DNA of 64,000 nucleotides from a virus (IMGVR_UViG_3300031414_000008:32001-96000), one strand, 5' to 3'; shown: positions 31,160 to 47,037, numbered from the stretch's first letter. Numbers and translations: made by a program. Notes: generated by a model from the sequence alone, not told the origin.

Positions 31160-31375
31160 ATGAAAAAGTCCTCAGGAATGCAGTACGAAGTTCGTCCAGT
31201 AATGCCGAAAGGCAAAGACGGTGTGGCCAAGAAAGGTCGTTACGGCAAGAAGCCGGAAAGCCAGATCTACCACGCTCACTCACCGGACGCTGCCCTGAAG
31301 CAGGCGGTGGTCAAGGGATTCATCCCGAGCAACACCGTAATGCAGTACTACGAGGCAGTACCGACTCGTAAGTAA
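31160..31375 (+). CDS. Small basic putative early protein
   Basis: Own sigma70 promoter and terminator. Confidence 0.75.
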   Translation: MKKSSGMQYEVRPVMPKGKDGVAKKGRYGKKPESQIYHAHSPDAALKQAVVKGFIPSNTVMQYYEAVPTRK

Positions 31376-31381
31376 TCCCAG

Positions 31382-31403
31382 AGCCCACTTCGGTGGGCTT
31401 TTT
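31382..31403 (+). terminator. Intrinsic terminator
   Basis: agcccac-ttcg-gtgggct-tttt. Confidence 0.85.
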
Positions 31404-31420
31404 CATACCTGTTTTTCACC

Positions 31421-31634
31421 CCTCCGTTACACCAAAAGTTACACACAAACCCTTACGCCATGCGGCTTTCAGAGCATCCAAACGTTGTAACCTTTCAAAC
31501 GTCACCCTAAGACATCTATAGGTAGAGTCCTACTATATATATTACGAATGTCTTTTTTTAAAAAATAAATAATATATGGACCCTAGGGAGCTATGGGGCT
31601 GTGTTGAGGTGAGTTTGTATGGTTACAACGTTTG
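31421..31634. repeat. Non-coding AT-rich element, copy 1 (candidate origin or cis-site)
   Basis: Collinear with 63123-63336; IR CAAACGTTGTAAC 31479-31491 / GTTACAACGTTTG 31622-31634. Confidence 0.9.
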
Positions 31635-31703
31635 CGGTGACCGTTCTCAGCGTCGTGGTGGGCTTTCGCTCGTACGCCAAGGTCCCGAATCGGGGTAAAT
31701 GCT

Positions 31704-31711
31704 GGTATAAC
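31704..31711 (+). promoter_or_regulatory. Phage promoter motif variant
   Basis: tggtataac upstream of 31762. Confidence 0.5.
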
Positions 31712-31761
31712 AATAGTAACGTACAGAGTCCCTTCTGGGACATTTTCATTTAGGTGATGAC

Positions 31762-32754
31762 ATGGATATACAAGAACTCCGCCACCGTGCGGCCCGCGGG
31801 GAGAATCTCACTTCCGGGGAATTGTTAGAGATTGCTGAACGTTGGGAAGACCTCGAGCGTCGTGAGAAGGGTCTTCTGGAACGGATCGAGAAACAGAACG
31901 CTAAGCTTGAAATCCTGAAGGGAATGACTCACCAGGCCTTCGAGGCCGCCTCTCAGTCTCGTACGATCGATCAGATGCGTGAGCAGAGCAAGCACGTGGC
32001 GGCCTCGGATTCACCCATCTTCAATTCCTTCGAAGTGGCTCAGGTTGTGTACGCCTTTGACATCGCAGAGGCTCGCTATGAGAACCTGCAGAAGCAACAC
32101 CAAAAGCTGGGTGAATGGTGTAACAAGGAGATGACGGTTGCAGAAGTGCTTGCGGATGTCGACTCCGGGAATGTCCACCCGTTCTCCTTCCAGGCCGTCG
32201 CCGCTCTGGTCCAATCCATGCGTGACAAGACTATGCTGGGTCGCCCGATGCGTAACAACGTCCGGGAAGTCTTCCAGCTCCTGAAGGCCCAACCGAATGC
32301 TCTGTTCTACGGCCCCGAGCTGAAGATGGTCCGTGAATGGGGCACTGATCACGACCGTAACCTGAGCATCGTTAAGTCCCGTCTGGGCCGTGCGTTCACC
32401 GATCCGGTGGGCTACATGGACACCCGCTTCGACTTGATGCTATCGAAAGCCACTAAGCGTCAGCTGCTCGACGGCCGTGTACTGACTGCCCAGGCTTACC
32501 AGCATGCAGTCTTCGCCCGTCCGGACTTCCTGCAGATCAAACCGGACTGGAAGTTGCATGATGGTAAGACCCAGTTCCACGCCGGTGAGCACTTCCATAC
32601 CCGGGCGTGTGATGGTATGTGGTGGTGTGGCACCCACTTCAACGATCTCACCGGTTATCAGTTAATGAATATCCTGGAGACGGCACTCGGTGAGTTGCGT
32701 CTCCTCTACATCCACTTCCCTAATGGAGTAACCAATGAAGAACCGGCCAAATAA
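31762..32754 (+). CDS. Hypothetical protein, coiled-coil N-terminus
   Basis: AGGTG SD, 330 aa. Confidence 0.75.
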   Translation: MDIQELRHRAARGENLTSGELLEIAERWEDLERREKGLLERIEKQNAKLEILKGMTHQAFEAASQSRTIDQMREQSKHVAASDSPIFNSFEVAQVVYAFDIAEARYENLQKQHQKLGEWCNKEMTVAEVLADVDSGNVHPFSFQAVAALVQSMRDKTMLGRPMRNNVREVFQLLKAQPNALFYGPELKMVREWGTDHDRNLSIVKSRLGRAFTDPVGYMDTRFDLMLSKATKRQLLDGRVLTAQAYQHAVFARPDFLQIKPDWKLHDGKTQFHAGEHFHTRACDGMWWCGTHFNDLTGYQLMNILETALGELRLLYIHFPNGVTNEEPAK

Positions 32755-33217
32755 AACCCAGCAACGCTTAGAAACCACGATCAATGAGAAGCTGCGTAAG
32801 GGGTGGAACTGCTTTACCCGTGAGGAAATGGAAGCGGTAATCGCTCTTCTGCACCAATCCCGCCGGGCGAAGACCGCTCTGTACCAGCGTATCCACACCT
32901 CTCACGGTGACGCCGTAGGTTGGACCCTGGATGGTGACATCGGGCTGCACGAACGTCGCCCGGCGCCGGAGGGTGCGATCAACCTGTTCCACAAACCGCC
33001 GCGTCTCGACTTCCCGCGTGGCTGGCGTGTACCGGTGGGCGTGAAGGTCCGCGGCTGGAAGGTGACCGAGGATGGTCGTCTCGTTCAGCACCGTAACCGC
33101 ACGCCGCAGTCTCCGAATGACGTTATGCGTCACCTGCACCAGACGCTGAACGATCTCTCCTACGGGTATAAGGTCTATGAGGCTAACCAATGCTCACCAT
33201 CCGAGGAATCAGAGTAA
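32735..33217 (+). CDS. Hypothetical protein
   Basis: GGAG SD, overlap-coupled. Confidence 0.7.
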   Translation: MKNRPNKTQQRLETTINEKLRKGWNCFTREEMEAVIALLHQSRRAKTALYQRIHTSHGDAVGWTLDGDIGLHERRPAPEGAINLFHKPPRLDFPRGWRVPVGVKVRGWKVTEDGRLVQHRNRTPQSPNDVMRHLHQTLNDLSYGYKVYEANQCSPSEESE

Positions 33218-33630
33218 CGCAGCAGGGCGACTGGTTCAGGCTGTATGATGTGTTCCGGGCGTCAGGGCGTCCGGATTACAACACGCCGTCCAGGTGGTTG
33301 AAGTCACGCTCTTTCCACTTCCTGAACAAGCCGAAGAAGGTGAAAGTGGACACGGATTTTGATATCATATGGGTCCGGTTGGAGCTCATCCCAGCCTACG
33401 CCAAATGGATCTCGATCCACTTTCAACGAGAAGTCAAAGAGGCAATTAATGGCTATAAACTCGCCAAAGCTACGGGGTTCTACCCGGACCACCGAAGCAA
33501 AACCCAAGCGTACCAAGATCCAGGACATGGACTTGGATATGCTGTACGATCAACCGAAGATCACGCCTACCGTCAAAAAGGCTATCTTGTCTCAGGAAGA
33601 CTTCAGCAAGATTCAGCCGCGGTACTGTGA
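33190..33630 (+). CDS. KilA-N domain protein
   Basis: I.GIRVTQQGDWFRLYDVFRASG..PSRWL..WV..ELIPAYAKWIS..F..EV. Confidence 0.75.
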   Translation: MLTIRGIRVTQQGDWFRLYDVFRASGRPDYNTPSRWLKSRSFHFLNKPKKVKVDTDFDIIWVRLELIPAYAKWISIHFQREVKEAINGYKLAKATGFYPDHRSKTQAYQDPGHGLGYAVRSTEDHAYRQKGYLVSGRLQQDSAAVL

Positions 33631-34798
33631 GAAAGTCTGTGGGATGCCGTGTGGCCTGAAGAAGCCGTCGATGGCCGACATCAACGGCGATCACGTCGAC
33701 GTCATTATCATCCAGGATCACCGTGCCGGTGCTGACGGGTGGAAGACGGCGGCCCAGGTTAACCAGCTGCACTTGACCCAAATCCGCTCGCTCGCTCGCT
33801 TGGCCTTCGGCCGGGATCTTACCTTTAAGGTGCTCTCCCTGACCAAGTGCTGGGGTGACACGCAGAAGAAGATCACACAGACGCAGATGCTGGGGTGCAC
33901 GCCGTATCTCTGGGAAGAGATTCGCCGGACTAAGCCCAGGGCGATCGTGTCGATGTCGACGGAGGTCACTAAGTCGCTCGGTCTGACGGCGTCGAACTAC
34001 AACAACCGCGGCGAGTTCTACATGCTGAACGCCGATGGCCTGCCGGAAATACCGGTGGTCCTGACGCTGCACGTGCGTGTCCTGAACATGCTCCGCCAGA
34101 ACGCCTCCGGTAAGATGTACGGTGCCGACTTCACGGGTGTCATCCTGAACGACCTGACTAAGATCCGCTGGATCCTCGAAGGGAAGATCCAGGTAGGTGG
34201 GCTGCGGGAGAACGTGGAGAGGATCATCGCTGACCAAGTCTTCGTGTGCTCGAAGCTTGAGCACGTGAAGGATATTGTCGACGTTCTGATGAAGCTGCCG
34301 CCGAACCAAGTCATCTCGTGGGACTTGGAGACGACCGGTCTGGACCCGTGGGCGCCGGATGCCCGCATCCTGACCTGCCAATTCGGGTACCGTCGTCCGG
34401 ACGGGAAGGTACAAGCGTTCGTTGTCCCGCTGTGGCACAAAGATCAGGTATTCTACGATCCGAAAGAGGCTTGGCTTCTCGTGCGGGCCGTGTTACTCTC
34501 ACAGCGTGCTAAAGTCGGACACAACGTGAAGTTTGACGTTCTGTACTGTACTGTCACTACCGGTGATCGTCCTGGCGGTCGTATCTTCGACACCATGCTG
34601 ATGATTCACTCACTGAACTCTGGAATTCAGGGGAACTACGGTCTGAAAGCCGCGATGTGGGACCACGTCCCAGGTCTCGGTCTGGGCGGCTATGAAGGGC
34701 TCCTCGATGAAACGCTCGACGCCGAAGAGATGAAACGTCTCGTGAAGCTCGAGAAAGGTGATAAAGAAGAGGAAGAAGATGAAGAAACTTCAGATTAG
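33449..34798 (+). CDS. polA: DNA polymerase A, N-terminal half: UDG family-4-like domain plus ExoI/ExoII
   Basis: CEKVC..TKC..GCTPYLWEEIRRTKPRAIV (UDG4-like); WDLETTG, GHNVKFD, FDTML. Confidence 0.85.
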   Translation: MAINSPKLRGSTRTTEAKPKRTKIQDMDLDMLYDQPKITPTVKKAILSQEDFSKIQPRYCEKVCGMPCGLKKPSMADINGDHVDVIIIQDHRAGADGWKTAAQVNQLHLTQIRSLARLAFGRDLTFKVLSLTKCWGDTQKKITQTQMLGCTPYLWEEIRRTKPRAIVSMSTEVTKSLGLTASNYNNRGEFYMLNADGLPEIPVVLTLHVRVLNMLRQNASGKMYGADFTGVILNDLTKIRWILEGKIQVGGLRENVERIIADQVFVCSKLEHVKDIVDVLMKLPPNQVISWDLETTGLDPWAPDARILTCQFGYRRPDGKVQAFVVPLWHKDQVFYDPKEAWLLVRAVLLSQRAKVGHNVKFDVLYCTVTTGDRPGGRIFDTMLMIHSLNSGIQGNYGLKAAMWDHVPGLGLGGYEGLLDETLDAEEMKRLVKLEKGDKEEEEDEETSD

Positions 34799-35588
34799 TG
34801 GCAAGGAGTTCATCCGCACGGATGGGCTGTACTACAACCTGACGGACCTGTTCCGTCTGACCACTTTGGGCGGGATCCGCCTGGAGCCGTGGGGATGGGC
34901 TCAGTCTGAGAATCGTACACGCGACATTTCTCGCCGTGGGTGGTTCTTCAAGAAGTCCTGGGCGAAGGCGGCGGTGCTGATCGAGTACGCACACTACCTG
35001 TCCCCGCACCTGTACCGTGACGTGCTGCGTGCCGTGAACATGGACGACACGGATAAGCTGATCGCTGTGTTCGGGGAGTTAAAGGCTGCTCGCCTGGACC
35101 TGCGTGTGCAGGAAGTCATCGACAAGCGTAAGAAGGTGAAAGAAGTATCCTCTACTCTGGCCACCAAGGTAGACCGTCGTGTCGAGCCTCTGCCGGATAC
35201 GAGTAAGCTTCCTCGCTTCAACGCAGACGACCTGCCGAAAGCCCGCCCTCAGCCGGCGAGCCGTCCGGAAGTGATGCTGCGTGACAGAAAGTCAGGCCGC
35301 CTGTCCACACCTTCCCGTTCGATGTCACACTCCCGCTCCATGGGTTCGTCCGTGACACACCACCGCTCTGAGCCAGACTACCTGACCCAGGCTATGGTAA
35401 CGCAATCGCTGATGAACAACTGGGATGACTCTTCTCATCGCAGTAGTCACCACTCTCGTAATGACGACGTGTGCTCCACTCCGAGCTATTCGTCCCATTC
35501 AAGCCACGATTCTCACCACTCCAGCTCTTCCTGGTCCGGGGATTCCGGTGGCAGCTACGACAGTGGCGGTGGCGGATGCGGCGACTGA
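34779..35588 (+). CDS. KilA-N-like protein with Ser/His/Gly low-complexity tail
   Basis: IRTDGLYYNLTDLFR..LIEYAHYLSP..Y; tail SSHSSHDSHHSSSSWSGDSGGSYDSGGGGCGD. Confidence 0.7.
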   Translation: MKKLQISGKEFIRTDGLYYNLTDLFRLTTLGGIRLEPWGWAQSENRTRDISRRGWFFKKSWAKAAVLIEYAHYLSPHLYRDVLRAVNMDDTDKLIAVFGELKAARLDLRVQEVIDKRKKVKEVSSTLATKVDRRVEPLPDTSKLPRFNADDLPKARPQPASRPEVMLRDRKSGRLSTPSRSMSHSRSMGSSVTHHRSEPDYLTQAMVTQSLMNNWDDSSHRSSHHSRNDDVCSTPSYSSHSSHDSHHSSSSWSGDSGGSYDSGGGGCGD

Positions 35589-35911
35589 TCAGACTGTACG
35601 AACAGTACATCGATTGGTATCACCGTAAGTTCCCCCTTCCGGTGGAGGCCGAGTGCCTCCGCTGGAACTTCATCGTGAAGGAGACTGTTCACCACATCTT
35701 CGTGTCGATCAACGGCACTAAGCTGTTGGTGATGGTCTCTCTCGACGTGGCAGGTCACCCGGTGACCGTCTGCCATGCTCGAAGGATGGCGGGGGCGCTT
35801 CGAATCGATGGCTTCTATCACGGTGGGCGGCTCTACCCCGCTCGTTTCTTCAATCTCTACCTCAAGGCAGGATTAAATGCCGTTCAGTCAGAACCTGGCA
35901 GATCTCTATAA
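35576..35911 (+). CDS. Hypothetical protein
   Basis: Overlap-coupled ORF MRRLIRL. Confidence 0.55.
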   Translation: MRRLIRLYEQYIDWYHRKFPLPVEAECLRWNFIVKETVHHIFVSINGTKLLVMVSLDVAGHPVTVCHARRMAGALRIDGFYHGGRLYPARFFNLYLKAGLNAVQSEPGRSL

Positions 35912-36212
35912 GAAGATCGACCAGTTGTCCTTCAGCGACTTCAAAGAGTTCACCTCTGAGGAAATGCATCGCTTTCGCGAGACTCTCGCCTTCGCAGACC
36001 CGGATGATTATCCGGAGGATGAGTTCGATCTCGTCCGTGCATACAATTGGCATAAGCTTCACCAGTTAGATCAGCAGCGCTTCGTCCTTCGACATAAGTT
36101 GACGGATCAGTACCTGCGGATTACCATTAATCGTACTATGGACGGCGAGATTCAAAAGAACGACGTCCGTCAGGTACAGAAACGTTACGAAATACAAGCT
36201 GTCTACGACTAG
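35877..36212 (+). CDS. Hypothetical protein
   Basis: Acidic 111-aa ORF. Confidence 0.7.
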   Translation: MPFSQNLADLYKKIDQLSFSDFKEFTSEEMHRFRETLAFADPDDYPEDEFDLVRAYNWHKLHQLDQQRFVLRHKLTDQYLRITINRTMDGEIQKNDVRQVQKRYEIQAVYD

Positions 36213-36221
36213 GAGAAGACG

Positions 36222-36587
36222 ATGCACGCGTTATTTGAAATGGTAAATAAAGACCCAGAGACCTGGACCCCGATTGAGAAACTCGGCCCGGTCATGCAGT
36301 TGATCGGCGAACCCCAGGTGGGAGACTTTATGGCAGAGCAGGACGGTAGAACGACCTTCCTCTGCACAGAGGTAACGCGTGTACGTGTCTCCCGGGCGGA
36401 TACGGACGGTATTCACTTCGAAGCCGGCCGCGGCATCCCGAATTGGTTTCAGCACGCCCAGAGTGCCTTTCAGGCTACGCCGAACGGTGTGCTCTTCGGC
36501 GGTGTGAAGCTCGACGCGGGGGATTACCTGGTCGTGGACGGCATGCAGATCCGAGTGGAGAAAGCCTGTGAAGCTGCTGCGAGTTAA
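36222..36587 (+). CDS. Hypothetical protein
   Basis: AGGAG SD. Confidence 0.7.
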   Translation: MHALFEMVNKDPETWTPIEKLGPVMQLIGEPQVGDFMAEQDGRTTFLCTEVTRVRVSRADTDGIHFEAGRGIPNWFQHAQSAFQATPNGVLFGGVKLDAGDYLVVDGMQIRVEKACEAAAS

Positions 36588-36783
36588 AGCTGTTCTCATC
36601 CCCGAGAACGACTACGAGGAGGTGGCGTTCCTGCCACCTCGAGCTAAACCCGTCACTGGCCCGCTGAAGGTCGGTGACTTCGTGGAGATGTCCCCGCATG
36701 GATACATCCGAGAGAAGTACCGCCTCCCAGTTGATGATCATGGGGTTCGACGCACTGGATTACGTCCGGACCTGTTCAGCTGA
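36568..36783 (+). CDS. Hypothetical protein
   Basis: GGAG SD, GTG start. Confidence 0.55.
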   Translation: MKLLRVKAVLIPENDYEEVAFLPPRAKPVTGPLKVGDFVEMSPHGYIREKYRLPVDDHGVRRTGLRPDLFS

Positions 36784-37324
36784 CCCCGGCCGCCTAGCGG
36801 CCATTTTCAAAAGCGATTCCTCCTTTAACGACGAAGACAACTCGATTACCATCCCGCCGATCCATGAGCTCTTCGTTGGAGAGAATCATGATGAGAACGC
36901 CGATGAGTTTGTCGAGCGGCTTCGTCGCTTAGGTTTCAAGGTGTTCTGCTCCTTCGACTCGACCCACATTCAGTGGCGTTCGACCACGACCTTTCCGAAT
37001 GCCCGCCAAGCGGCGGACCTCACGGCTGATGCCCTCCAGCCTTTAGTCGACAAATGCATCCGGGAAACGAAAGGCGAGCTCGAGGTGGCCATTGAGATGC
37101 ACCGTTTCGAGACTGGCATCCGGAAAATCATGGAGTATGAGGCCGGTGTCCAGACCGAAGTCATCATTTTCCTGAAAAATTCCGGGTATGAAGTGAAGAA
37201 GGAGTATACCGCTTACGGTCTGGACGGAGACTATCTGCACTCCGGCTACACCGTCTCATGGTATCCCCGTAAAGTCGTACGCGATATTGAAGTAATCCCA
37301 TGGTGGAAATTTTGGAGAAAGTAA
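36734..37324 (+). CDS. Two-domain member of L..(L/M)G(Y/F).V..I.W family
   Basis: LRRLGFKV..IQW and LKNSGYEV..VSWYPRK. Confidence 0.7.
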   Translation: MIMGFDALDYVRTCSADPGRLAAIFKSDSSFNDEDNSITIPPIHELFVGENHDENADEFVERLRRLGFKVFCSFDSTHIQWRSTTTFPNARQAADLTADALQPLVDKCIRETKGELEVAIEMHRFETGIRKIMEYEAGVQTEVIIFLKNSGYEVKKEYTAYGLDGDYLHSGYTVSWYPRKVVRDIEVIPWWKFWRK

Positions 37325-37572
37325 TGACCAAACTGCAAGCTGCCGACGCAATGGCTCTCGTGCGTCAATCCCAAGACGACGTTGTGAATAACGCCATCGA
37401 TAATATCCTTGATTTTATCGAATACGCGGCCCGTCAGGCCTTAACGTTCACCGTCGACGATATGCACTCCAACCCGGACGTGCAAGAGAGTGTCACTAAG
37501 AAGCTCGAAGCCTTGGGTTACAAGGTTGAAATCATCGAGAACAACAAAATCAAGATCTCATGGAGAAAGTAA
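37324..37572 (+). CDS. Small protein, same family
   Basis: AADA..IEYAARQ..KLEALGYKV..IKISWRK. Confidence 0.75.
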   Translation: MTKLQAADAMALVRQSQDDVVNNAIDNILDFIEYAARQALTFTVDDMHSNPDVQESVTKKLEALGYKVEIIENNKIKISWRK

Positions 37573-37850
37573 TGGACGCCAGTCAAGCTCGCCAACAAAC
37601 ACAAGACACGATAGCTCACCAGTTCTCGGAACTCGAAGACATGGTCATGGGCAAGATCTCCGACGCCGTGAAACGTGGGGATTATTCCGTGATGGTCTCC
37701 GTGAACGGTAAGAGTGCGGGTGCCAAGTCGGCCCTGCTCGAAATGTTGCGTGCTGCCGGCTATACGCTGCAGGAACCAACCAGCGGTGATCAACGGGATT
37801 ATGGCTACGTGACCATTTCGTGGTTGACACCACCTGAAGTAACAGAGTAA
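37572..37850 (+). CDS. Small protein, same family
   Basis: ASQARQ..ISDAVKRG..LRAAGYTL..VTISW. Confidence 0.75.
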   Translation: MDASQARQQTQDTIAHQFSELEDMVMGKISDAVKRGDYSVMVSVNGKSAGAKSALLEMLRAAGYTLQEPTSGDQRDYGYVTISWLTPPEVTE

Positions 37851-37911
37851 ACTTTCCTTGGGTGATCGGAGGACCGACACCCACTTCACCCTCGTTTTGG
37901 AGAACCATACG

Positions 37912-39153
37912 ATGAAGCAATACAAATTAGCTGTAGTTATCGGCCGCATGCAATTCCTGCACAATGGCCATATTCACCTGTTCAATGAAGCTGCCAAGAA
38001 GGCAGAACAGATTCTCGTCCTCGTCGGCTCGTCCGATAAGGCACCGTCCCCAAGCAATCCTTTTAACTACCAACAGCGTGAGAAGATCGTCTACGGCGCC
38101 CTGAAGGAAGCCGGGATCACTGACGCTCTGAATTCCCGCGTCGGCGTCCTGCCACTTCCGGATGACTATCTGGAAGACCAGTGGATTGCCAACGTGATCA
38201 ACGCCGTCCAGACCTACGCGGAGAACCAGATCGGCGAAACCGGTCAGTTGATCCGTGACGAAGACATTGTTCTGGTTGGCCATGAGAAAGATGCCTCCTC
38301 ATACTACCTGCAGATGTTCCCGCAGTGGGCCTTCTACAATGCCCCGAACGACCGCGGCCTGAATGCCACCGACTTCCGTAAAGAGCTCTTCGATCGCCTG
38401 CCGGCCCGGGACCCTCAGTTTATTGCCAAGCTGCTTAAGCTGACGCAACCCCTGTCCCCGTTTGAATCTGCAGCGTTCTGCCAGGATGTCGCTAGCATTC
38501 TGGAAGAACATTATCCAGAACTGAACCAGCACCTGGGCACTAAACCTTCTGGCGATCTGCGTGCCTTGGACATGACCCACCTGAAGCTGAACTCGCCGAA
38601 AGCCATGCATCCATTCCTGGAAGAGTACATCCGCTCGGAAGAGTACATGAACATGGTGGCGGAGAACGGTCAGTACGCCGATGAGAAGCTGTCCTGGGGT
38701 ATGGCACCGTATCCGGTGACCTTCGTGACCACCGACGCCGTCGTCACTCACCGTTCCTCGATCCTGATGATTCGCCGTAAGAACCATCCGGGTAAAGGCC
38801 TGTGGGCACTCCCAGGCGGATTCCTGGGCGCTAAAGAATGGATCCGTGACTCAATCATCCGTGAACTGCGTGAAGAGACACGTATCGCCGTGGCGAACGA
38901 AGATCTCCTGCGTATCATGCAGCCAATCAAAGTGTTCGATAACCCAGGCCGTTCACTGCGTGGCCGTGTCATTACACACGCCGCTCGTTTTAACCTGGAT
39001 CACCTGGGCTTAACGAAGCGTCCGAAGGTGCGTGCCGATGATGATGCTGAAGCGGTCCGCTGGTTCTCGTTCGGTGAAATCCTGAAGGCCGACAAGTCGC
39101 TCTTCGAAGATCACGCTGAAATCATCCGCCGTCTCGTTTTCTCACGAGGTTGA
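37912..39153 (+). CDS. nadM: Bifunctional NMN adenylyltransferase / Nudix hydrolase (NadM-Nudix)
   Basis: GRMQFLHNGH, SNPFNY..R, VGHEKDASSYYL..FP.W; WALPGGF..E..IRELREET. Confidence 0.92.
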   Translation: MKQYKLAVVIGRMQFLHNGHIHLFNEAAKKAEQILVLVGSSDKAPSPSNPFNYQQREKIVYGALKEAGITDALNSRVGVLPLPDDYLEDQWIANVINAVQTYAENQIGETGQLIRDEDIVLVGHEKDASSYYLQMFPQWAFYNAPNDRGLNATDFRKELFDRLPARDPQFIAKLLKLTQPLSPFESAAFCQDVASILEEHYPELNQHLGTKPSGDLRALDMTHLKLNSPKAMHPFLEEYIRSEEYMNMVAENGQYADEKLSWGMAPYPVTFVTTDAVVTHRSSILMIRRKNHPGKGLWALPGGFLGAKEWIRDSIIRELREETRIAVANEDLLRIMQPIKVFDNPGRSLRGRVITHAARFNLDHLGLTKRPKVRADDDAEAVRWFSFGEILKADKSLFEDHAEIIRRLVFSRG

Positions 39154-39154
39154 T

Positions 39155-39907
39155 ATGATCGGTGAAATTGGTGAAGACGTCATCCTGGTCCGTGAGATCA
39201 TGCGGGAGGGTGAAAAACAAGTGGACGCTGGCTCTGTAGGTCGACTCGTGGAAATACAAGGCGACCTGACGGCCTCGGTATTCTTCGACGGCAAGGGTCG
39301 CTATAAGGTGTCACAGGACGCGATCCGTGGTAAGGCCTTCAAGACCGGAGATGAAGTGCAGCTTAACGCAACTGTCCACGGTGTATTCCAGGTCTACCTC
39401 GTGGGTGAACGCGGGGTTATTCGAAACGTCGTCGCTCAGGGTAATAGCTATCACTACAATGTTTTGATTGGCGACCAGTGCGTCCTCGTTCGTTCTCACT
39501 TACTTCGTAAAGCTGAAGGAAATCCAATGGTTATCTCTGAACTCGCTAAACACATGATCAACGTCGGTAGTGGCGTCAATCACCGTGAGGTACCGGAATG
39601 GTTCCAATCCGTCGTTAATGCTCTTCGTGCCATGCCGGAACTTTCTAAGATGGGGCAGGCTCAGTTGGAATTCGTTATCAAGACACACATGCAGTACCGT
39701 CGTGTCGATAACCGTTCAGACTTGGTCTCCAATGTGCTCTTCGGTATTCCGGCTTGCACTGGCCATCAACAGCTTCGTACCTTGGAAGTCTCTCTGTATG
39801 ACTACAAGGAGAAGCTTGACGCTGAGTGGAAGAAACTGAACAAGGTCATTCCGATCGAGTTCCAGTACGCTGCACTTCGGGCTTACTCGGAGTTGAAGAA
39901 TGACTGA
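39155..39907 (+). CDS. Hypothetical protein with SH3-like N-terminal repeats
   Basis: GEDV.LV..G.VG and GDEVQL..GERG. Confidence 0.65.
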   Translation: MIGEIGEDVILVREIMREGEKQVDAGSVGRLVEIQGDLTASVFFDGKGRYKVSQDAIRGKAFKTGDEVQLNATVHGVFQVYLVGERGVIRNVVAQGNSYHYNVLIGDQCVLVRSHLLRKAEGNPMVISELAKHMINVGSGVNHREVPEWFQSVVNALRAMPELSKMGQAQLEFVIKTHMQYRRVDNRSDLVSNVLFGIPACTGHQQLRTLEVSLYDYKEKLDAEWKKLNKVIPIEFQYAALRAYSELKND

Positions 39908-40310
39908 CTTGATCCCCGTAGGAACGGTAGCCCGTGCTGCCCGGAACATCGGAGACCCACGTCTGACGCTTCCTTATATCTATGCAGGTGAGGAAGTGAC
40001 GGTCATGAGTCATCCGCGTGTCCAGGGAGAAGAGCTACCGTGGGAACCTAACGGCTACATCGTTCGTAACCGTGAGGGTCTCCAGGTGGTTGCCACCCGA
40101 GCGGACATCACGCTTGAACCGGTGCCGCCAGCGAAAACGCTTGAAGAGCACATCGCTGCAGCTTTCCGTGAAGGCTACTCTCAGGGCCACTCCCGTGGCC
40201 TGACCTGCGGAAAGCTGTATGGTGGTGACGACCAGTATATCGTCATCATCCAGGTCGCTACCCGGGATTACGTCCGGGAACTCAGAGGTGAAGATGAATC
40301 CGATTGTTAA
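39900..40310 (+). CDS. Hypothetical protein
   Basis: Overlap-coupled ORF. Confidence 0.65.
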   Translation: MTDLIPVGTVARAARNIGDPRLTLPYIYAGEEVTVMSHPRVQGEELPWEPNGYIVRNREGLQVVATRADITLEPVPPAKTLEEHIAAAFREGYSQGHSRGLTCGKLYGGDDQYIVIIQVATRDYVRELRGEDESDC

Positions 40311-40791
40311 GTACCTGATAGCGATTGGTTTGTTCGGTGCGTACACTTACGGGGTCTACTCTTTCGGCGTCTCTCATCAGGACACGAAGGACCAACTATC
40401 GAACGCCGGGGCGACCATCACACAAACGCAACAAGCCCGCTCGACCGAACAGACTCTGGCGACAGACGCCTGGAAGATCGATGCGGCGTACCAAAAAGGA
40501 GTCCTGGAGGGCCAACAACGTGCACAAACTCTCACTAATTCTCTTCTTAACGGTTCTGTCGGGATGTACGTCCCGATACGTCCCACCACCGCCGTGCCCG
40601 GTCATCCCGCCGCCGTCGCCAAGTCTGTTGCAGAAACACAATGCAGACTTCCTGGACAGACTGCAGCAGATCTTGCCGACCTTGCCCGTCGAGCCGATGC
40701 CATCGTCGAGCAGTCAAACTCCCTCGTCGACTACTATGAACGTGTCCTTACTAAAGTCGGGCACCCCGAGCTGATTCTGGAGCGTAAATGA
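40294..40791 (+). CDS. Rz: i-spanin (Rz-like)
   Basis: GAGGTG SD; N-terminal TM, coiled coil, CRL..LA..AD..V.Q...L..Y. Confidence 0.8.
   Translation: MNPIVKYLIAIGLFGAYTYGVYSFGVSHQDTKDQLSNAGATITQTQQARSTEQTLATDAWKIDAAYQKGVLEGQQRAQTLTNSLLNGSVGMYVPIRPTTAVPGHPAAVAKSVAETQCRLPGQTAADLADLARRADAIVEQSNSLVDYYERVLTKVGHPELILERK
40520..40774 (+). CDS. Rz1: o-spanin lipoprotein embedded in Rz (+1 frame)
   Basis: GGAGG SD 9 nt before GTG; LSLILFLTVLSG-C lipobox; Pro-rich TSRYVPPPPCPVIPPPSP. Confidence 0.82.
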   Translation: MHKLSLILFLTVLSGCTSRYVPPPPCPVIPPPSPSLLQKHNADFLDRLQQILPTLPVEPMPSSSSQTPSSTTMNVSLLKSGTPS

Positions 40792-40834
40792 TCTGGTTCT
40801 GGGTACTCTTTATTCTGCTGATTCTGGGGGTTTT

Positions 40835-41005
40835 ATGACTCACGGTGAACTCTTCTGGTTCGCTCTCTTTATCTGGCTAGCGATCCCTCGCTCGGATTCT
40901 CTGAGCAGCCTTATCGGAAAGACAGGCCTGTTCGTCATGGCCTGCTATAACTTCGTGCTGTGGATCATTGATACCTCGCACCCAACCTTAATTCACTTAG
41001 GATAA
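40835..41005 (+). CDS. 56-aa two-TM membrane protein (holin candidate, weak; not in ORF track)
   Basis: GGGGG SD; two hydrophobic segments; follows spanins. Confidence 0.45.
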   Translation: MTHGELFWFALFIWLAIPRSDSLSSLIGKTGLFVMACYNFVLWIIDTSHPTLIHLG

Positions 41006-41010
41006 CGACT

Positions 41011-42522
41011 ATGTTAGACATGAAGAAAGTTTTAGATGTCCGCCACCAGGCGAAAATGATGATCGAACTCCACGGCCAGCCGACTTCGTTCAACCGTATC
41101 TTCAACGAAATCAACTTCAACCCGCTGACCTGGATGGACGGTTACAAGTTCTCCCAGTTCCTGCAGTATCCGCTGAAGACGAACCACCTGCTCTCCTACA
41201 TCGAAGCCCGCTTCGGTGCCAAGCACGTTGACATTCCGTTCTACATCCAGCCGTTCCTGAAGGAGTTCATGACGCGTCCGCTGACCCAGCGTCACATCGA
41301 CGATCAGGCCGCGGCGAACGCTAAGTACGGTGCTCCGTTCAACAAAGCCGGCTACGAGCGTATCGTGAACGAGTTCGGTGGCCGCTGGCCGGTAGAGATC
41401 AAAGCGCTTCCGGAAGGCTGTATCGTGCCGCCTGGCGTGCCGATGACTTACATCGAAGAGACCCACCCGGACTTCGCGTGGATCGTGTCCCCGTTCGAGA
41501 CCGCGATGCTGCGTGGCGTGTGGTACATGACGACCGTTGGTGCCGTTTCTCTGGCCGTTCAGAAGACCATCCGCAAGTACCTGCTGGAATCCTCTGACCT
41601 GACACCGGTGGAAATCGAAGAGACGATGTCTCTGATGTTGAACGACTTCGGTGCCCGCGGTGCGACTGGCCATGAAGGTGCGATGCTGGGCGGTATGGCC
41701 CACCTGTTGACCGGTCAGCTCGGTACCGACACGATGGAAGCGGTAGACGGCCTGCGGATCTACTACCACCAGGAACGCGGCACCGGCGGCATGACGATCC
41801 CTGCCTCTGAGCACTCCACGGCCACGTCCTTTGGTCTGGAGCCGGAAGAAGAGATCGCGTTCAACAACCACATGATCGAGATGTTCGGTGACGGCTTCAT
41901 CTTCGCGTCGGTCATTGACTCTGCGGATGCTCACCGTAACGTACGCGATCACTGGGGTACGGCGAACCTTGATCGTGTCCTGGCGATGAAGGCCCGTCTG
42001 GTTCTGCGTCCGGATTCTGGCGTGCCGGAAGAAGAGTCGGTCAAAGTCCTCGAGCTGATGTGGGAACGCTTCGGCGGTACGACCAACTCCAAAGGCAAGC
42101 GTGTCCTGAATCCTAAGGTCCGCATGATCTACGGTGACGGCATCAACGAAGAGAGCATCGAGCGTATCTGTGCGGCCGTCGTCGGCACCGGCTTCTCCCT
42201 GGAGAACATGTGCTTCGGGATGGGCGGTGCACTCCTGCAGGACGTCGTTCGCGACACTGAACGCTATGCCATGAAGGCGTGCGAAATCGGTGATGACAAA
42301 GGTCGTCGTCCAATCGGCAAGAAGCCGAAGACTGACCCGACCAAGTCCTCGAAGTTCGGTCCACGCTACCTGTACCTGAACAACTTCGGTGAGATCATCC
42401 AGTACGCCGAGCCGGTGGTCGGTTGCGAAGAGCTGATGTCTGTGCGTTACCGCAACGGTCTGCTCCTCGAAGACTACACCTGTGACATGGTGCGTGACCT
42501 GATCGCTCATCAGCGTCACTAA
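41011..42522 (+). CDS. nadV: Nicotinamide phosphoribosyltransferase
   Basis: DGYKFSQ..QYP, YIEARFG, LNDFGARG, GTDT, PASEHS, VIDS, VLRPDSG, FGMGGALLQ..RDT..YAMKA. Confidence 0.95.
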   Translation: MLDMKKVLDVRHQAKMMIELHGQPTSFNRIFNEINFNPLTWMDGYKFSQFLQYPLKTNHLLSYIEARFGAKHVDIPFYIQPFLKEFMTRPLTQRHIDDQAAANAKYGAPFNKAGYERIVNEFGGRWPVEIKALPEGCIVPPGVPMTYIEETHPDFAWIVSPFETAMLRGVWYMTTVGAVSLAVQKTIRKYLLESSDLTPVEIEETMSLMLNDFGARGATGHEGAMLGGMAHLLTGQLGTDTMEAVDGLRIYYHQERGTGGMTIPASEHSTATSFGLEPEEEIAFNNHMIEMFGDGFIFASVIDSADAHRNVRDHWGTANLDRVLAMKARLVLRPDSGVPEEESVKVLELMWERFGGTTNSKGKRVLNPKVRMIYGDGINEESIERICAAVVGTGFSLENMCFGMGGALLQDVVRDTERYAMKACEIGDDKGRRPIGKKPKTDPTKSSKFGPRYLYLNNFGEIIQYAEPVVGCEELMSVRYRNGLLLEDYTCDMVRDLIAHQRH

Positions 42523-42659
42523 TCAATCGGAGGGCCAAGGATGGCCCAATGAGTAATATACTGCTCATTAATGGCCAAAAGTGCTATTATTGTGTAGTAT
42601 ATTGCTCATTATCTTTTTAGGTCTATAAGCACCGCTAATCATTAAAAAGGGGTCCTTTG

Positions 42660-42677
42660 GGTATAAGTAAGGTGTAA
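42660..42677 (+). promoter_or_regulatory. Phage promoter motif
   Basis: ggtataag taaggt gtaa. Confidence 0.7.
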
Positions 42678-42698
42678 ACCACACAAGGACTTTTGATC

Positions 42699-43562
42699 AT
42701 GATTCTTCAATACCTCAAAGCTATCGACCGCGAACAGTACAACAAATACGTGGACTTCAACATGGGCTACCTGTCCGACCTGAAGCTCAATCTCTTCACC
42801 CCAATGCCTGACGACTACGCGATTAAGAACATCCTCGCGAAGGACGAAATGGACCCGTTTGCCATGTCTCCGAACTCCGCCCCAAGGAAACTCCATGAGG
42901 CGCTGGGCAAACTGATTGAACGTCTGTACTTCTTCAACGAGGAAGAGAAGGCGGCAATCAACGGGGTTATGACGTACCTGGATATCTCGATGAGCCCGGA
43001 CCTGGGTCATATCGAACGCACGCTGGCCCCACTCGAAGGGATCCATGAGGAACTCATCGAGGTAGAGACCGGTGCGGACGGCGTGATCGTGTACGCGAAG
43101 ATGCTCTACAACCGTTCTCGTATCATGGCCCTGCAGTCACGCGGTCTGAATGACCTGGAACGTGAGCTGCGTACGGACCTGGACAAGCAGATCCCCGCGG
43201 ATGAGTTTGCTGCACTCCTGTGTCGCATGAACTCCATTCACCACGCTCTGAAGTCTATTCGGACCTCGGTCATTCCGAGCATGAAAGACAAAGAGATCTG
43301 TGCTATGATTGTCGACATCAGTGAAGCGATGATTACGTACCGTCGCTCCCTGATTGCCCCAGAGAAAGCCGGTCTCGGTGAATTCGATCTGGCAGCGTCC
43401 GAGCAGTTGCTCCTCAAGAAGCAACCGACTCAGGCAGCCGGCGACAACCTCAAGACCATCATCGATTCGTACTCTGCAAAGAACTTAGCGTTCACCCCTG
43501 CGGACTTCCTTCTGTCACTGAACGAAGGTGTTCGCCTGTCAGGTATCAACCTGATGGTGTAA
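42699..43562 (+). CDS. Hypothetical helical protein
   Basis: AAGGA SD, 287 aa. Confidence 0.75.
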   Translation: MILQYLKAIDREQYNKYVDFNMGYLSDLKLNLFTPMPDDYAIKNILAKDEMDPFAMSPNSAPRKLHEALGKLIERLYFFNEEEKAAINGVMTYLDISMSPDLGHIERTLAPLEGIHEELIEVETGADGVIVYAKMLYNRSRIMALQSRGLNDLERELRTDLDKQIPADEFAALLCRMNSIHHALKSIRTSVIPSMKDKEICAMIVDISEAMITYRRSLIAPEKAGLGEFDLAASEQLLLKKQPTQAAGDNLKTIIDSYSAKNLAFTPADFLLSLNEGVRLSGINLMV

Positions 43563-43567
43563 TCACA

Positions 43568-43587
43568 AAGCCCTTCGGGGCTTTTTT
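43568..43587 (+). terminator. Intrinsic terminator
   Basis: aagccc-ttcg-gggctt-tttt. Confidence 0.8.
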
Positions 43588-43597
43588 AGGAGAAAAT

Positions 43598-43813
43598 ATG
43601 CACGTAGAAATTACTGCGATTCCCAAACAGGTCCGTTGCATCGGCCTGAACAACCTGCAAGTTGGCGATTCCTTCGAGCTCTACCGGGAGACCGGTGCTG
43701 AGTCGGACAACCACTGGTTCAATTACGGCAGCATGAAGCAATTCGAGAACAACCTCGATGACCTGATCGTTAACGGGATCGAATTCAAGGTGACCAATGA
43801 AAAAGCCGAGTAA
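43598..43813 (+). CDS. Small hypothetical protein
   Basis: AGGAG SD. Confidence 0.7.
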   Translation: MHVEITAIPKQVRCIGLNNLQVGDSFELYRETGAESDNHWFNYGSMKQFENNLDDLIVNGIEFKVTNEKAE

Positions 43814-45353
43814 CTTCACATACGAATGGTACGACTATGACGCTCTGAACGCGTACGCCGGCCTCGACTGTGTTGCGACTCTGGAACTCATGGCGTCCTT
43901 GATGCCTAAGCTCCTGGATAAACCCCGCTACACCTGGTATCAACAGGGTGTTCGGACGGTATCGACGGCGCCCTCTGTTTTTTCCGAGCAAATTGACATC
44001 AAGACCAAGGCCTTGGAGTTCATTTGCGACATGGAAATCGTGGGGATGCAGTACGATATCGAAGGCAACCGAGCGATGGACAAACGGATGGTGGAGGACT
44101 TGGCAGCGACCGAGGACCAGATCTTTACTGCCATCGGCAAACGCATTGACCTCTCCTCCGCGGTCGTCCTGAAGGACTTCCTGTACCGCGAGATGGGCTT
44201 CGAGGCGCCTATTCAGACCAAACACGGTGACGACTCCACCTCCGGAGATGCCTTGATTGCTCTGAACAAGATCCACAAACTCCCGTGGCTCGAGGCGATC
44301 AAGAAGCGTAACGACGTCATGGCGATGCACGGCAACTTCATCAAGACGTACGTTGAGGACTGGGTCAAGCACGACGGCCGTGTGCATCCGAGCTACAACC
44401 TGCACGGTACGAGTTCTCACCGTATCTCCTCGTCGGAACCGAACCTCTTGAACCTGCCGCGAGGCTACTACGGCTACAACATCCGTCAGCTGTACACCTC
44501 AAAGCCCGGGTACATTTTCTTAGCCTTCGACTTCTCCTCCTGTGAGGTTAAGATTCTGGCCGCCCTGTCGGGTGACGAGACGATGATCGAGGCTTGCGTA
44601 TCCGGCAAGGACTTCCACTCGTACACAGCATCGATGATCTACCACATCGACTACGACGAGTTCGTAGCCATCGTTAAGGATCACCATCACCCAGACCACA
44701 AGAAGTTCAAGAACTACCGTCAGGGCGCCAAGTCTGTGACCTTCGGCCTGCTGTACGGTGCGACCGTTAACTCCATCGCCCGTGACTTAGGCATCGAACT
44801 GCCGGAAGCTCAGGAGATCGTTGACGCTTACTTCAACATCTACCCTCGAGTGAAAGCGTTCATCGCCGACTGCCACGCTATGGCCGGTGATAACCAGTTC
44901 GTCGTGACCCCGTTCGGTCAACGCAAAATGGAATATGGCACGCTGCCTATGTTCCAGGGCTCTGCGGCGTTCAATGCGGCGAAACGTAACGCTCAAAACG
45001 TGATGATTCAGTCTCCGGCGTCGACGCTGGGTCTCGTGGTGTTCACCGAACTGAACCGTCGCATGAAGGAAATCGGCGGCCAGTGCATCTGTACGGTGTA
45101 CGACTCCATTGAAATCGAAGTGCCGCTGGCCCGGGCGGAAGAAGCCGTGAAGCTTGGCTACTACGTCATGAACGATTGGCCTCAGGAAGTGTTCGATTGG
45201 TTGAACTTCCCGATCGGTGCCGATGGTGAAATCGGTTGGAACTGGGGTGACGTGGAGCCCGTCTACGCGACTTCAACCCAGGCAGAAATCATGTCAATGC
45301 TCGCCGCGGCGAACAGCGACAAATTCCAGGAAGCAGTGAGGATGGCAGCATGA
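43797..45353 (+). CDS. polA: DNA polymerase A, C-terminal half: ExoIII plus polymerase domain
   Basis: YAGLDC (ExoIII), RISSSEPNLLNLP, DFSSCE (A), RQGAKSVTFGLLYG (B), TVYDSI (C). Confidence 0.95.
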   Translation: MKKPSNFTYEWYDYDALNAYAGLDCVATLELMASLMPKLLDKPRYTWYQQGVRTVSTAPSVFSEQIDIKTKALEFICDMEIVGMQYDIEGNRAMDKRMVEDLAATEDQIFTAIGKRIDLSSAVVLKDFLYREMGFEAPIQTKHGDDSTSGDALIALNKIHKLPWLEAIKKRNDVMAMHGNFIKTYVEDWVKHDGRVHPSYNLHGTSSHRISSSEPNLLNLPRGYYGYNIRQLYTSKPGYIFLAFDFSSCEVKILAALSGDETMIEACVSGKDFHSYTASMIYHIDYDEFVAIVKDHHHPDHKKFKNYRQGAKSVTFGLLYGATVNSIARDLGIELPEAQEIVDAYFNIYPRVKAFIADCHAMAGDNQFVVTPFGQRKMEYGTLPMFQGSAAFNAAKRNAQNVMIQSPASTLGLVVFTELNRRMKEIGGQCICTVYDSIEIEVPLARAEEAVKLGYYVMNDWPQEVFDWLNFPIGADGEIGWNWGDVEPVYATSTQAEIMSMLAAANSDKFQEAVRMAA

Positions 45354-45685
45354 GTGCATTTGAAAAAGGCAGTAAACATTTACTCTTCCGCATCATGCGG
45401 ATGGTGACCGAGCAGCAGACCGAGCACGGGGCGTTCCGCTTCGTGTATCACCGCACGCTGAACGAGATCAAGGACAAGCTCCTGGAAACGACCGAGGGTG
45501 ACATGAAGTACGTCATTGTTTTCGCCACGATGTTCGGTGATACAGCCTCCCCGGCGACCTCCATGAAGCTCTTCGCCGGCGCCGTCGACGCTCTGATTCA
45601 GGAACCGGGAGCCGAGCTCTCGATTCTGTGCCAGCCGCGGGACTACACGGAGCTGCCGGAGGTCGTAAACATCATCGTGAAGTGA
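45350..45685 (+). CDS. Hypothetical protein
   Basis: ATGA overlap. Confidence 0.7.
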   Translation: MSAFEKGSKHLLFRIMRMVTEQQTEHGAFRFVYHRTLNEIKDKLLETTEGDMKYVIVFATMFGDTASPATSMKLFAGAVDALIQEPGAELSILCQPRDYTELPEVVNIIVK

Positions 45686-45686
45686 G

Positions 45687-45704
45687 GGTATAAGAATAAC
45701 GTAA
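45687..45704 (+). promoter_or_regulatory. Phage promoter motif
   Basis: ggtataag aataac gtaa. Confidence 0.7.
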
Positions 45705-45743
45705 CGGGGAGCTAGACTCCCCTCTTTCAATCAAGGAGTTTGT

Positions 45744-46181
45744 ATGGACATCTTTCGCACGACGACTAAACAGCTGCGATTCAATCTTCAGGCCCGGTTA
45801 CTCAGTGAGATGACTGACGGTCGCCCGCCGCTCGAGCGCTGCATGCTGGGCAACATCATGGTGCTTCGCAATGATATGGCGAACCGTGAACTGAATGAGT
45901 ACATCCGTGAACAGACTTCGGTTCGCGGCGAAGATCACTCCTTCCTGTTCCGTGAGCTGTTCGGCGAAGAGAATCTGACCACTGAGTGGAAGACCTCTGA
46001 ACTTCTCAATGAAGCGGCTAACTGGATGATCGATAACGACATTCATGGCGCCTTCAAGATCGAGACAATCACTTGGCGCTATCGCGATACACCATGGCAC
46101 CTTCCTCTCATCACCGGTTTCTCCGTCCGCGGTACCGGCGTAATGAAAAACACCATCAAAGGCTTCGGGAAATCATCATGA
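45744..46181 (+). CDS. Hypothetical protein
   Basis: AAGGAG SD. Confidence 0.75.
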   Translation: MDIFRTTTKQLRFNLQARLLSEMTDGRPPLERCMLGNIMVLRNDMANRELNEYIREQTSVRGEDHSFLFRELFGEENLTTEWKTSELLNEAANWMIDNDIHGAFKIETITWRYRDTPWHLPLITGFSVRGTGVMKNTIKGFGKSS

Positions 46182-46480
46182 GAAAAGAAGAGATCTTCCA
46201 CCGTCAGTTAATCAACTCGTACGTCAAACACGTCGCGACGACGCCAACAGAGGAGTTCCTGGTTCGCTCAGAGCTGATCCGTCGCACCCGCGAGTTCACC
46301 GGTAACATGGGCCCGGACGGTCCGCAGTACGCTCGTGCCTCTACCGCGATCTTCTTCCGTGGCGACAAGATGGCCTACGAAGAGCACCTCGTCATGGCAC
46401 TGATCGAAGAGCCTGCGTATGTGTACGAAATCGAAACGTTCCCTTACGGGGACACCACTTTGAAATCTGTGAGTATCTAA
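46178..46480 (+). CDS. Hypothetical protein
   Basis: ATGA overlap. Confidence 0.7.
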   Translation: MRKEEIFHRQLINSYVKHVATTPTEEFLVRSELIRRTREFTGNMGPDGPQYARASTAIFFRGDKMAYEEHLVMALIEEPAYVYEIETFPYGDTTLKSVSI

Positions 46481-46843
46481 ATGTCAGCTTCTCAACGACT
46501 GTTCTTGAAGATTCACCGAGCGATCGCTGAGCAAGCTGGGAGCGACCTGGTAGGCTATTCAGTCTTCCGGGCGCTCCGCATCGATGCTATGCAGATCTCA
46601 TCTTTGATGAAAACCCCTCACGACCCACAAGCGGAAACTTTCGCTCGCATGCATGCCGAACCCAAAACCATCGCGGCGACCCGAACTATGTTCCTCAAAG
46701 CTTTAGCTCACAGAGAGAACCTCCGGGACGACTACTACGTTGGTGTGACGCTTAAGACCCGTGGTGTGACCGAACCGCCAGTGGTGACGGAGATCACCAT
46801 GTGGGATGAGGACATCCAGAAGAAAACGAGGTTCAAGCTATGA
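46481..46843 (+). CDS. Hypothetical protein
   Basis: Abutting ORF. Confidence 0.7.
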   Translation: MSASQRLFLKIHRAIAEQAGSDLVGYSVFRALRIDAMQISSLMKTPHDPQAETFARMHAEPKTIAATRTMFLKALAHRENLRDDYYVGVTLKTRGVTEPPVVTEITMWDEDIQKKTRFKL

Positions 46844-47037
46844 AGAAAATGGGCTATGCCCTACTGGCGTTGGTTACGGCTAATCTGGGCTCGGTCGTCG
46901 CCAACGCAGAAACCATGGGCCCGGATGCCGAAGCGGCGCCAGACAGCGCCCCTTGGAAGGTCCGCCTGTACGGTGCTAACAAAGACCGTCGGGCATCCCG
47001 TAAGAAACGTGCTAAGAAACTAGGGAGAAGACGATGA
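46840..47037 (+). CDS. Small protein, hydrophobic N-terminus and basic C-terminal tail
   Basis: ANKDRRASRKKRAKK. Confidence 0.65.
   Translation: MKKMGYALLALVTANLGSVVANAETMGPDAEAAPDSAPWKVRLYGANKDRRASRKKRAKKLGRRR

Follow-up and report, generated by a model that had tools for sequence, protein, structure and literature searches.

Within the 64,000-nucleotide stretch of viral DNA analysed here (the window, bases 32001–96000 of the complete 182,632-bp virus record IMGVR_UViG_3300031414_000008, which has direct terminal repeats), the motifs of one family-A DNA polymerase are distributed over two genes on the same strand. The first (the N-half, 449 residues) stops inside the proofreading 3′–5′ exonuclease domain, and the second (the C-half, 518 residues) starts 8,998 bp beyond the stop codon of the first and supplies the remainder of that domain together with the polymerase domain. 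We consider it very likely that this arrangement is a true split of an SPO1-type family-A polymerase gene and that the two products form an obligate, non-covalent two-subunit enzyme in which the proofreading site is shared between the chains.

The N-half has a basic N terminus, a domain weakly resembling family-4 uracil DNA glycosylases (UDGs), the first two-thirds of the exonuclease domain and an acidic tail. Pfam aligns residues 274–385 to positions 11–108 of the 173-position PF01612 profile, and this segment contains the catalytic residues of ExoI (D292/E294) and ExoII (N359/D363). The homologous part closes with ...GLGGYEGLL, followed by 30 strongly acidic residues; this tail is a new C terminus created by the split. 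Such tails are negatively charged in 26 of 27 members of the N-half family, with a median length of 23 residues and a median net charge of −7. The C-half begins MKKPSNFTYEW, a short basic head that leads into the ExoIII helix, the rest of the exonuclease domain and a complete polymerase domain. It matches the PF00476 profile over its full length (positions 5–381 of 381; E 1.7e-64; 218.6 bits against a cut-off of 34.3) and Taq and Bst polymerases at E values of 1e-49 to 1e-34. The family-A catalytic motifs A and B and the aspartate of motif C (D436) are all present. Across the C-half family the heads are short and basic (median net charge +2), becoming long and lysine-rich in some lineages. All three motifs of a DnaQ-like exonuclease (ExoI, DxE; ExoII, Nx2-3[F/Y]D; ExoIII, Yx3D) are present, spread over two polypeptides. 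The anatomy of both genes is thus as an earlier note, made from the DNA alone, had described it.

Both halves fall on a single PHROG profile, phrog_17, the N-half at positions 543–780 and the C-half at positions 795–1257. An exhaustive HMMER search with the N-half identified a fused orthologue within the same clade, P0026 (858 residues; three contigs from two sources), which is 38–42% identical to both halves. In P0026 the similarity to the N-half continues as far as N-half residue 416 (GGYE) and that to the C-half starts at C-half residue 2; a linker of about 10 residues (...GGYEDELGKLPAGKTYEDF...) is all that separates the two parts. The AlphaFold2 model of P0026 has a predicted local distance difference test score (pLDDT) of 94.6 and a predicted template modelling score of 0.91, and its top match in the PDB is the Klenow fragment (1d8y/1kfs; E 7e-33; template modelling score 0.84–0.86). 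In this model the site of the cut corresponds to a coil, residues 375–383, just ahead of the long ExoIII helix. Profile coverage, the abutting parts of P0026 and the modelled coil agree with the earlier suggestion that the break falls in one loop with nothing missing; as modelled, the cut sits in a surface coil between ExoII and ExoIII, and no residues are lost.

The halves are not accompanied by any recognizable splicing element. Rfam detects no intron within 32000–47000, at E values up to 1, and none at the N/C junction of two cultured relatives, Salmonella phage Arash and Vibrio phage D69. In Pfam, neither the halves nor any intervening open reading frame (ORF) matches an intein, Hint or homing-endonuclease domain, in keeping with the absence of intein and intron signatures reported previously. 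Split-intein 'fractured genes' would carry N- and C-intein segments at the break, with a nucleophile residue at the junctions, and none is seen here; the only non-homologous residues are the 33 of the tail and 7 of the head, which vary in both length and sequence and are acidic or basic, respectively. An arrangement of the Aeh1 nrdA/mobE type would place a free-standing endonuclease gene (HNH, GIY-YIG or similar) between the halves, and none of the 15 intervening ORFs matches an endonuclease family. Contigs from an RNA-Seq library (a plant metagenome) are collinear with the window across both the end of the N-half (33000–36730) and the start of the C-half (42346–43897). Two further runs, X10 and X12, probably of DNA, contributed no more than short fragments at low depth.

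The catalytic residues are unchanged on both halves. ExoI and ExoII are retained throughout 27 aligned N-halves, and the ExoIII tyrosine and aspartate and the polymerase residues throughout 48 C-halves. Pairwise ratios of non-synonymous to synonymous substitution rates (dN/dS) against five relatives are 0.06–0.2 over the UDG-like part, the exonuclease part, the tail and the C-half (0.08–0.17 for the N-half exonuclease segment, 0–0.2 for the tail taken separately), indicating that both halves are under purifying selection. The complete 182.6-kb genome contains one PF00476 match, one PF01612 match and no family-B polymerase; as the only DNA polymerase found there, the split enzyme is presumably the replicase.

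We modelled the C-half together with N-half residues 245–449, a check that the earlier note had proposed. The predicted complex scores 0.86 (0.86–0.87 over three runs), whereas the best of three controls scores 0.00; the 0.86 mark is reached by 58 of 80 solved complexes and by 2 of 110 mismatched pairs. Between runs, at least 94% of contacts are shared, and the partner pLDDT is at least 80. In the predicted interface, C-half residues 7–35 and 61–81 pack against the exonuclease sheet and helices of the N-half (residues 256–415), making about 220 contacts. This result shows that the halves fit, not that they bind.

We propose that the two genes are translated separately and that roughly the first 80 C-half residues, which comprise the ExoIII helix and its neighbours, would dock onto the incomplete exonuclease fold of the N-half, rebuilding a Klenow-like enzyme without a covalent join. 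The proofreading site would then combine D292, E294 and D363 from the N-half with Y20 and D24 from the C-half, so that there would be no exonuclease until the complex had assembled. The acidic tail and basic head, as the new termini, may aid assembly, which is speculative. Proteome mass spectrometry of phage Arash detected Gp168, the orthologue of the N-half, at 98.66% coverage with 513 spectra (PMC10585845), indicating that the N-half is produced as a protein.

Only four cultured phages in the phage collection carry the split polymerase: Arash, whose N-half (gp168c) and C-half are 85% and 94% identical to those of the window, and Vibrio phages D69, D181 and D148 (44% and 52%). Metagenomes contain 37 clusters of N-halves (50% identity; E below 1e-30), nearly all 390–500 residues long and ending shortly past GGYE, and more than 120 clusters of stand-alone C-halves (90% identity) of 500–600 residues on contigs of up to about 200 kb. 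The four cultured phages and many uncultured ones share the same cut site. The spacing of the two genes varies widely. They overlap by 11–23 nt in different frames in L020, L024, L025 and L029, are separated by one small ORF in L017 (80 residues) and in L019, L018 and D69 (163–181 residues), lie 0.8–1.3 kb apart in L026 and L028, and lie 5.1 kb apart with 11 small ORFs between them in L014. Spacings of 7.3–9.0 kb are found in the Arash-like lineage (L005, Arash, L004, L007 and the window, which has the widest gap of all). That the genes overlap or stand one ORF apart in so many relatives implies co-expression.

The search for fused orthologues that the earlier note had called for yielded two such forms within the clade, P0026 and P0033, the latter fused as far as its intron. 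When N-halves are placed in a tree with fused SPO1-like polymerases as the root, the in-group forms one clade (support 100), in which the two fused forms share a sub-clade (support 99) with overlapping split forms. The best explanation is that the split is old and widespread, having arisen early in a large phage clade with many genomes of about 150–200 kb; that the usual arrangement is overlapping or near-adjacent genes; and that in the Arash-like lineage the gap gained 7–9 kb of accessory genes, including those for nicotinamide adenine dinucleotide (NAD) salvage and a spanin. The spacing series therefore makes the layout of the window a derived extreme of an old split, with no separate invention.

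The coordinates of both genes, their motifs and the features between them are collected in Table 1.

Table 1 Features of the split polymerase locus, numbered from the first base of the window
Feature	Position	Strand	Basis and remarks
N-half gene, 449 residues	33449–34798	+	ORF and translation; basic N terminus, UDG-family-4-like domain, exonuclease part, acidic tail
UDG-family-4-like domain	33614–34198	+	About residues 56–250; weak similarity to true UDGs
ExoI motif D292-L-E294	34322–34330	+	Unchanged across 27 N-halves
ExoII motif H358-N-V-K-F-D363	34520–34537	+	H358 and D363 invariant in 27 aligned N-halves
Acidic C-terminal tail past GGYE	34697–34795	+	33 residues, 15 D/E, net charge −10
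Inserted block, about 14 genes	34779–43562	+	Pfam, PHROGs
NMNAT-Nudix fusion gene	37858–39153	+	In inserted block
Rz-like spanin gene	40219–40791	+	PHROG E 1.4e-12
NAMPT gene	41011–42522	+	In inserted block
Long hairpin and U-run after NAMPT, terminator-like	42548–42620	+	Fold of 42523–42660
Hairpin AAAGCCC-TTCG-GGGCTTT and T-run, terminator-like	43567–43587	+	AGGAG ribosome-binding site directly 3′, then start codon
71-residue ORF	43598–43813	+	Overlaps C-half start by 17 nt
C-half gene, 518 residues	43797–45353	+	Short basic head, ExoIII helix, rest of exonuclease domain, complete polymerase domain
ExoIII motif Y20-A-G-L-D24	43854–43868	+	Y20 and D24 invariant in 48 C-halves
Polymerase motifs A (D245, E250), B (R308, K312, F316, Y320) and C (Y435-D436-S437)	44529–45104	+	Invariant in alignment; Taq alignment
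Empty intron site	44744–44745	+	tblastn breaks at residue 316/317 in Arash, D69 and L004

The separation of 9 kb and about 16 genes given in the earlier note is close to our count of 15 plausible same-strand ORFs, and the NAD-salvage and spanin genes that it placed between the halves are identifiable as the NMNAT-Nudix fusion, NAMPT and Rz-like spanin genes. The inserted block is syntenic in Arash and in L004, L005, L006 and L007 from IMG/VR, and absent from Vibrio phage D69 and from other lineages. The earlier note's placement of the halves in different transcription units is, by comparison, not established: two terminator-like hairpins lie between them, and no promoter was found. The RNA from 42523–42660, which contains the first hairpin with CUUUUU directly after it, folds at −51.3 kcal/mol (z −5.6; none of 200 shuffles folds as well), and in Rfam it gives only a weak, chance-level match to a plastid psbA 3′ untranslated region model. 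The second hairpin is conserved immediately ahead of the C-half unit in each of the five relatives compared, among them L001 (Arash), L004, L005 and L007, four relatives whose loops differ (GCAA, TCCG and TGC); its 12-nt core, GCCCTTCGGGGC, occurs four times in the window (here and at 12922, 25983 and 52246). This hairpin could be a terminator, an attenuator or an RNA-stabilizing element. There is no room for a promoter between it and the ribosome-binding site, so the C-half would have to be reached via read-through or RNA processing. A scan of 31000–47000 for sigma-70 promoters and terminators performed at chance level and overlooked the hairpin at 43567, and is uninformative on transcription units; RNA polymerase subunits of its own are reported for Arash (PMC10585845).

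The two hairpins bear on the idea that proofreading is regulated, with the halves expressed from separate units and the N:C ratio varied so that an unpartnered C-half acts as an error-prone polymerase and the mutation rate is tuned. This adds to the two-subunit model and does not oppose it. Both hairpins lie between the halves in the Arash-like lineage, and the conservation of the second immediately upstream of the C-half unit makes unequal transcript levels conceivable. However, the split is far older than the 9-kb spacing, many lineages have coupled genes (with an 11-nt overlap or one small ORF between them), and fused orthologues exist within the same clade. Moreover, the N terminus of the C-half (about 80 residues) is integral to the exonuclease fold, so that an unpartnered C-half would expose half a domain; the predicted interface is very large, as for an obligate complex; and the second hairpin leaves no promoter space ahead of the ribosome-binding site. 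We therefore regard regulated proofreading as improbable. The narrower proposal that the halves are separately controlled in the Arash-like lineage, with the C-half preceding or outnumbering the N-half at some stage of infection and copying without proofreading, has in our view a slender chance of being correct; if true, replication would be switched between accurate and error-prone modes by a built-in mechanism that depends on dosage. The earlier note had combined a heterodimeric polymerase whose exonuclease site forms in trans with tuning by subunit ratio. The invariant motifs, the dN/dS values, the complex score and the fused orthologues argue for the first part, whereas coupled genes in many relatives, fused forms, the very large interface and the derived nature of the 9-kb spacing leave the second unsupported.

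The halves might instead be functionally independent: an N-half whose half-nuclease is dead, serving by itself as a UDG-like or DNA-binding factor, and a C-half that polymerizes alone without an exonuclease. The GenBank label of the Arash N-half is simply 'uracil DNA glycosylase', the genes are 9 kb apart, and the N-half is evolving somewhat faster than the C-half (85% versus 94% identity to Arash). Yet invariant ExoI and ExoII motifs on N-halves and ExoIII motifs on C-halves are hard to explain unless a composite site is used, the N-half exonuclease segment is constrained at the dN/dS given above, without a partner there is no role for the conserved first 80 residues of the C-half, and the complex model brings both parts together; independence is very improbable. 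We give hardly any credence to a post-transcriptional or post-translational joining of the halves, whether through an intron spliced in cis or in trans or through a split intein like those of 'fractured genes'. Mobile group I introns do occur at the motif B site of the polymerase in Arash, D69 and L004, and split-intein fractured genes are known from metagenomes (PMC2677866), but Rfam finds no intron between 32000 and 47000 or at the N/C junction of Arash or D69, Hint, intein and endonuclease domains are absent, and the 33 tail and 7 head residues outside the homologous core show no intein-like junction residues. RNA-library contigs are also collinear at both ends, and Arash Gp168 was detected as a separate protein with nearly complete coverage. 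The window comes from a metagenome-derived virus record, in which a misassembled or rearranged contig could have parted one gene. This is almost certainly not the case here, as the same order and spacing recur in Arash, a cultured phage with a complete sequence, in four independent genomes from IMG/VR and in contig X2 of another run, and a start, a stop and a ribosome-binding-site context are present separately for each half.

Several points weigh against the two-subunit enzyme that we favour. Beyond the gene anatomy, the conservation and the absence of splicing elements, which are observed directly, we infer the binding and the activity of the paired halves. The likeness of the halves to solved single-chain polymerases (Klenow and Bst) may explain why the complex passes, in which case the score would mean that the halves still fit and would not imply binding. 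Motif C of the C-half (45099–45107) reads Y-D-S in place of the usual H-D-E, with Ser437 replacing the glutamate in all 48 relatives, and full polymerase activity is assumed given this motif. The C-half is not among the proteins in the Arash mass-spectrometry table (PMC10585845), which is uninformative either way. We looked for spliced products, and no contig of the RNA-Seq library joins the end of the N-half to the start of the C-half, evidence that is weak because the contigs possibly derive from carried-over DNA and rare spliced forms would be dropped. Finally, the base of the N-half tree is a polytomy, in which one ancient split followed by re-fusion and several separate splits are not separable.

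The closest known counterparts of the two halves are the fused SPO1-type polymerases of the Herelleviridae (for example Lysinibacillus phage LysYB1, 891 residues; Bacillus phage 278BB001, 985 residues). These enzymes and P0026 have the same domain order as is assigned to the window proteins, a putative UDG-like domain followed by the 3′–5′ exonuclease and the family-A polymerase, and the combined length of the halves (449 + 518 residues) matches. By tblastn, N-half residues 113–406 align to the N-terminal parts of the fused Herelleviridae enzymes, and the C-half aligns to their polymerase parts. The Herelleviridae enzymes and P0026 are single polypeptides, whereas here the coil between ExoII and ExoIII is cut and an acidic tail and basic head have been added. 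The E. coli Klenow fragment shares the order of ExoI–III and polymerase motifs A, B and C, but is a single chain, has no UDG-like domain and has HDE rather than YDS at motif C.

Split phage polymerases are already known. In LUZ24-like Pseudomonas phages PolA is also encoded by separate genes, gp25 ('DNA polymerase exonuclease subunit') and gp34/gp36 ('DNA polymerase part II'). There the gap is about 2.3 kb with eight unrelated small genes, as against 9 kb here, the polymerase part is interrupted again by an endonuclease gene, and there is no UDG-like domain. LUZ24 gp25 (169 residues) carries ExoI–III and the cut falls at the border between exonuclease and polymerase, whereas in the window ExoIII is on the polymerase-bearing half; a LUZ24-type split of the window polymerase is ruled out by the position of its cut inside the exonuclease domain. 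An experimental precedent is the PolB of phage PhiKZ, which is divided between the separately encoded gp82 (DNAP-N) and gp50 (DNAP-C); the two subunits purify together, as a stable 1:1 complex active both as polymerase and as exonuclease (PMC13648687). Like the window enzyme, this is an intein-free phage replicative polymerase encoded by two genes with the break inside a domain, although the complex described here is predicted only. PhiKZ differs in that the enzyme belongs to family B, the cut is in an insertion in the palm domain and the exonuclease domain is whole on one subunit. In fractured genes (Dassa et al. 2009, PMC2677866) and in the split DnaE of cyanobacteria, as in the window, an essential replication gene is encoded as two separate pieces, but their products are ligated by split-intein halves and no intein parts are found here. 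The 'split DNA polymerases' described for an OM43 phage and for cyanophages are not equivalent; that of the OM43 phage is cut inside the polymerase domain, possibly by an intron, and the cyanophage account gives no cut position.

Neither the Arash paper (PMC10585845) nor the other literature that we searched, the coverage of which was incomplete, describes a PolA cut between ExoII and ExoIII; we found no description of a cut internal to the exonuclease. The window would add to the split phage polymerases a family-A case in which the cut passes through the proofreading active site and not between domains. Together with the cultured phage Arash, the naturally fused, overlapping and distant forms provide a ready series for studying the evolution of new termini (acidic tail and basic head) in a split enzyme, and for following how accessory genes, those for NAD salvage among them, come to settle in the gap. 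The split also calls for a correction of annotation: in GenBank the Arash N-half bears the name 'uracil DNA glycosylase', and its C-half exons are called 'DNA polymerase nu' and 'DNA polymerase theta'.

The similarity of the N-half to glycosylases is weak. Its UDG-like region matches a type-4 UDG and an 'SPO1 DNA polymerase-related protein' at E about 0.15 (phmmer against the PDB), and Pfam gives no UDG match for the window protein; N-half relatives carry a weak PF03167 match. Four cysteines in this region (C60, C64, C134 and C150; 33626–33898) are at least 90% conserved across the N-half family, at positions like those of the Fe–S ligands of family-4 UDGs. Because direct similarity to UDGs is weak, the domain may be a non-catalytic Fe–S DNA-binding module.

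The gap between the halves (34779–43562) behaves like an insertion hotspot whose content varies by lineage, with NAD-salvage and spanin genes in the Arash-like phages versus 11 small ORFs in L014. The window ORFs at 39155–39907 and 39900–40310 have homologues in L006 and L007, and Arash keeps only a 20-residue C-terminal trace of the second. The 71-residue ORF that precedes the C-half is 65% identical to Arash gp155c and 62% identical to its counterpart in L007. It has no homologue in L005 or L004, where the hairpin directly precedes the C-half, and no match in Pfam or PHROGs.

An ORF of 163–181 residues lies between the halves, overlapping both, in three distant lineages (L002 [D69] 13463–14008, L018 9463–10008 and L019 3411–3902), and these ORFs are homologous to each other. 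They have no Pfam or PHROG match, a word-based homology search returned only the query, and the ESM Atlas gave no usable match. The AlphaFold2 model is all-helical, with a pLDDT of 53.7 that is too poor for a fold search. The product could be a third polymerase-associated protein or a remnant of whatever caused the split. Neither the 289-residue ORF (42693–43562) nor the 71-residue ORF of the window shows homology to it (no BLAST match; hhalign probability 0.4%).

In several relatives the C-half gene is itself interrupted. A group I intron is inserted exactly after F316 of motif B in Arash (L001 14937–15208), D69 (L002 14920–15438) and L004 (about 20395–21072), with Rfam RF00028 scores of 58.9 bits in Arash and 45.3 bits in D69. 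The motif B intron is absent from the window, from L005 and, over the part covered, from L007, and this pattern of presence and absence among relatives indicates that it is mobile. In L020 (2031–2074) the halves overlap in different frames just past a run of AAAAGGGGGG, where a one-base slip would fuse both; this could be programmed frameshifting, or else a frameshift of recent date or an error in the sequence. The L020 polymerase is directly followed by an IS605-type OrfB/TnpB gene. Insertions of about 660 bp at residues 217–220 of the C-half in L029 (2340–3000) and of about 1.25 kb near motif B in L030 (12440–13696) are probably further introns or endonuclease genes.

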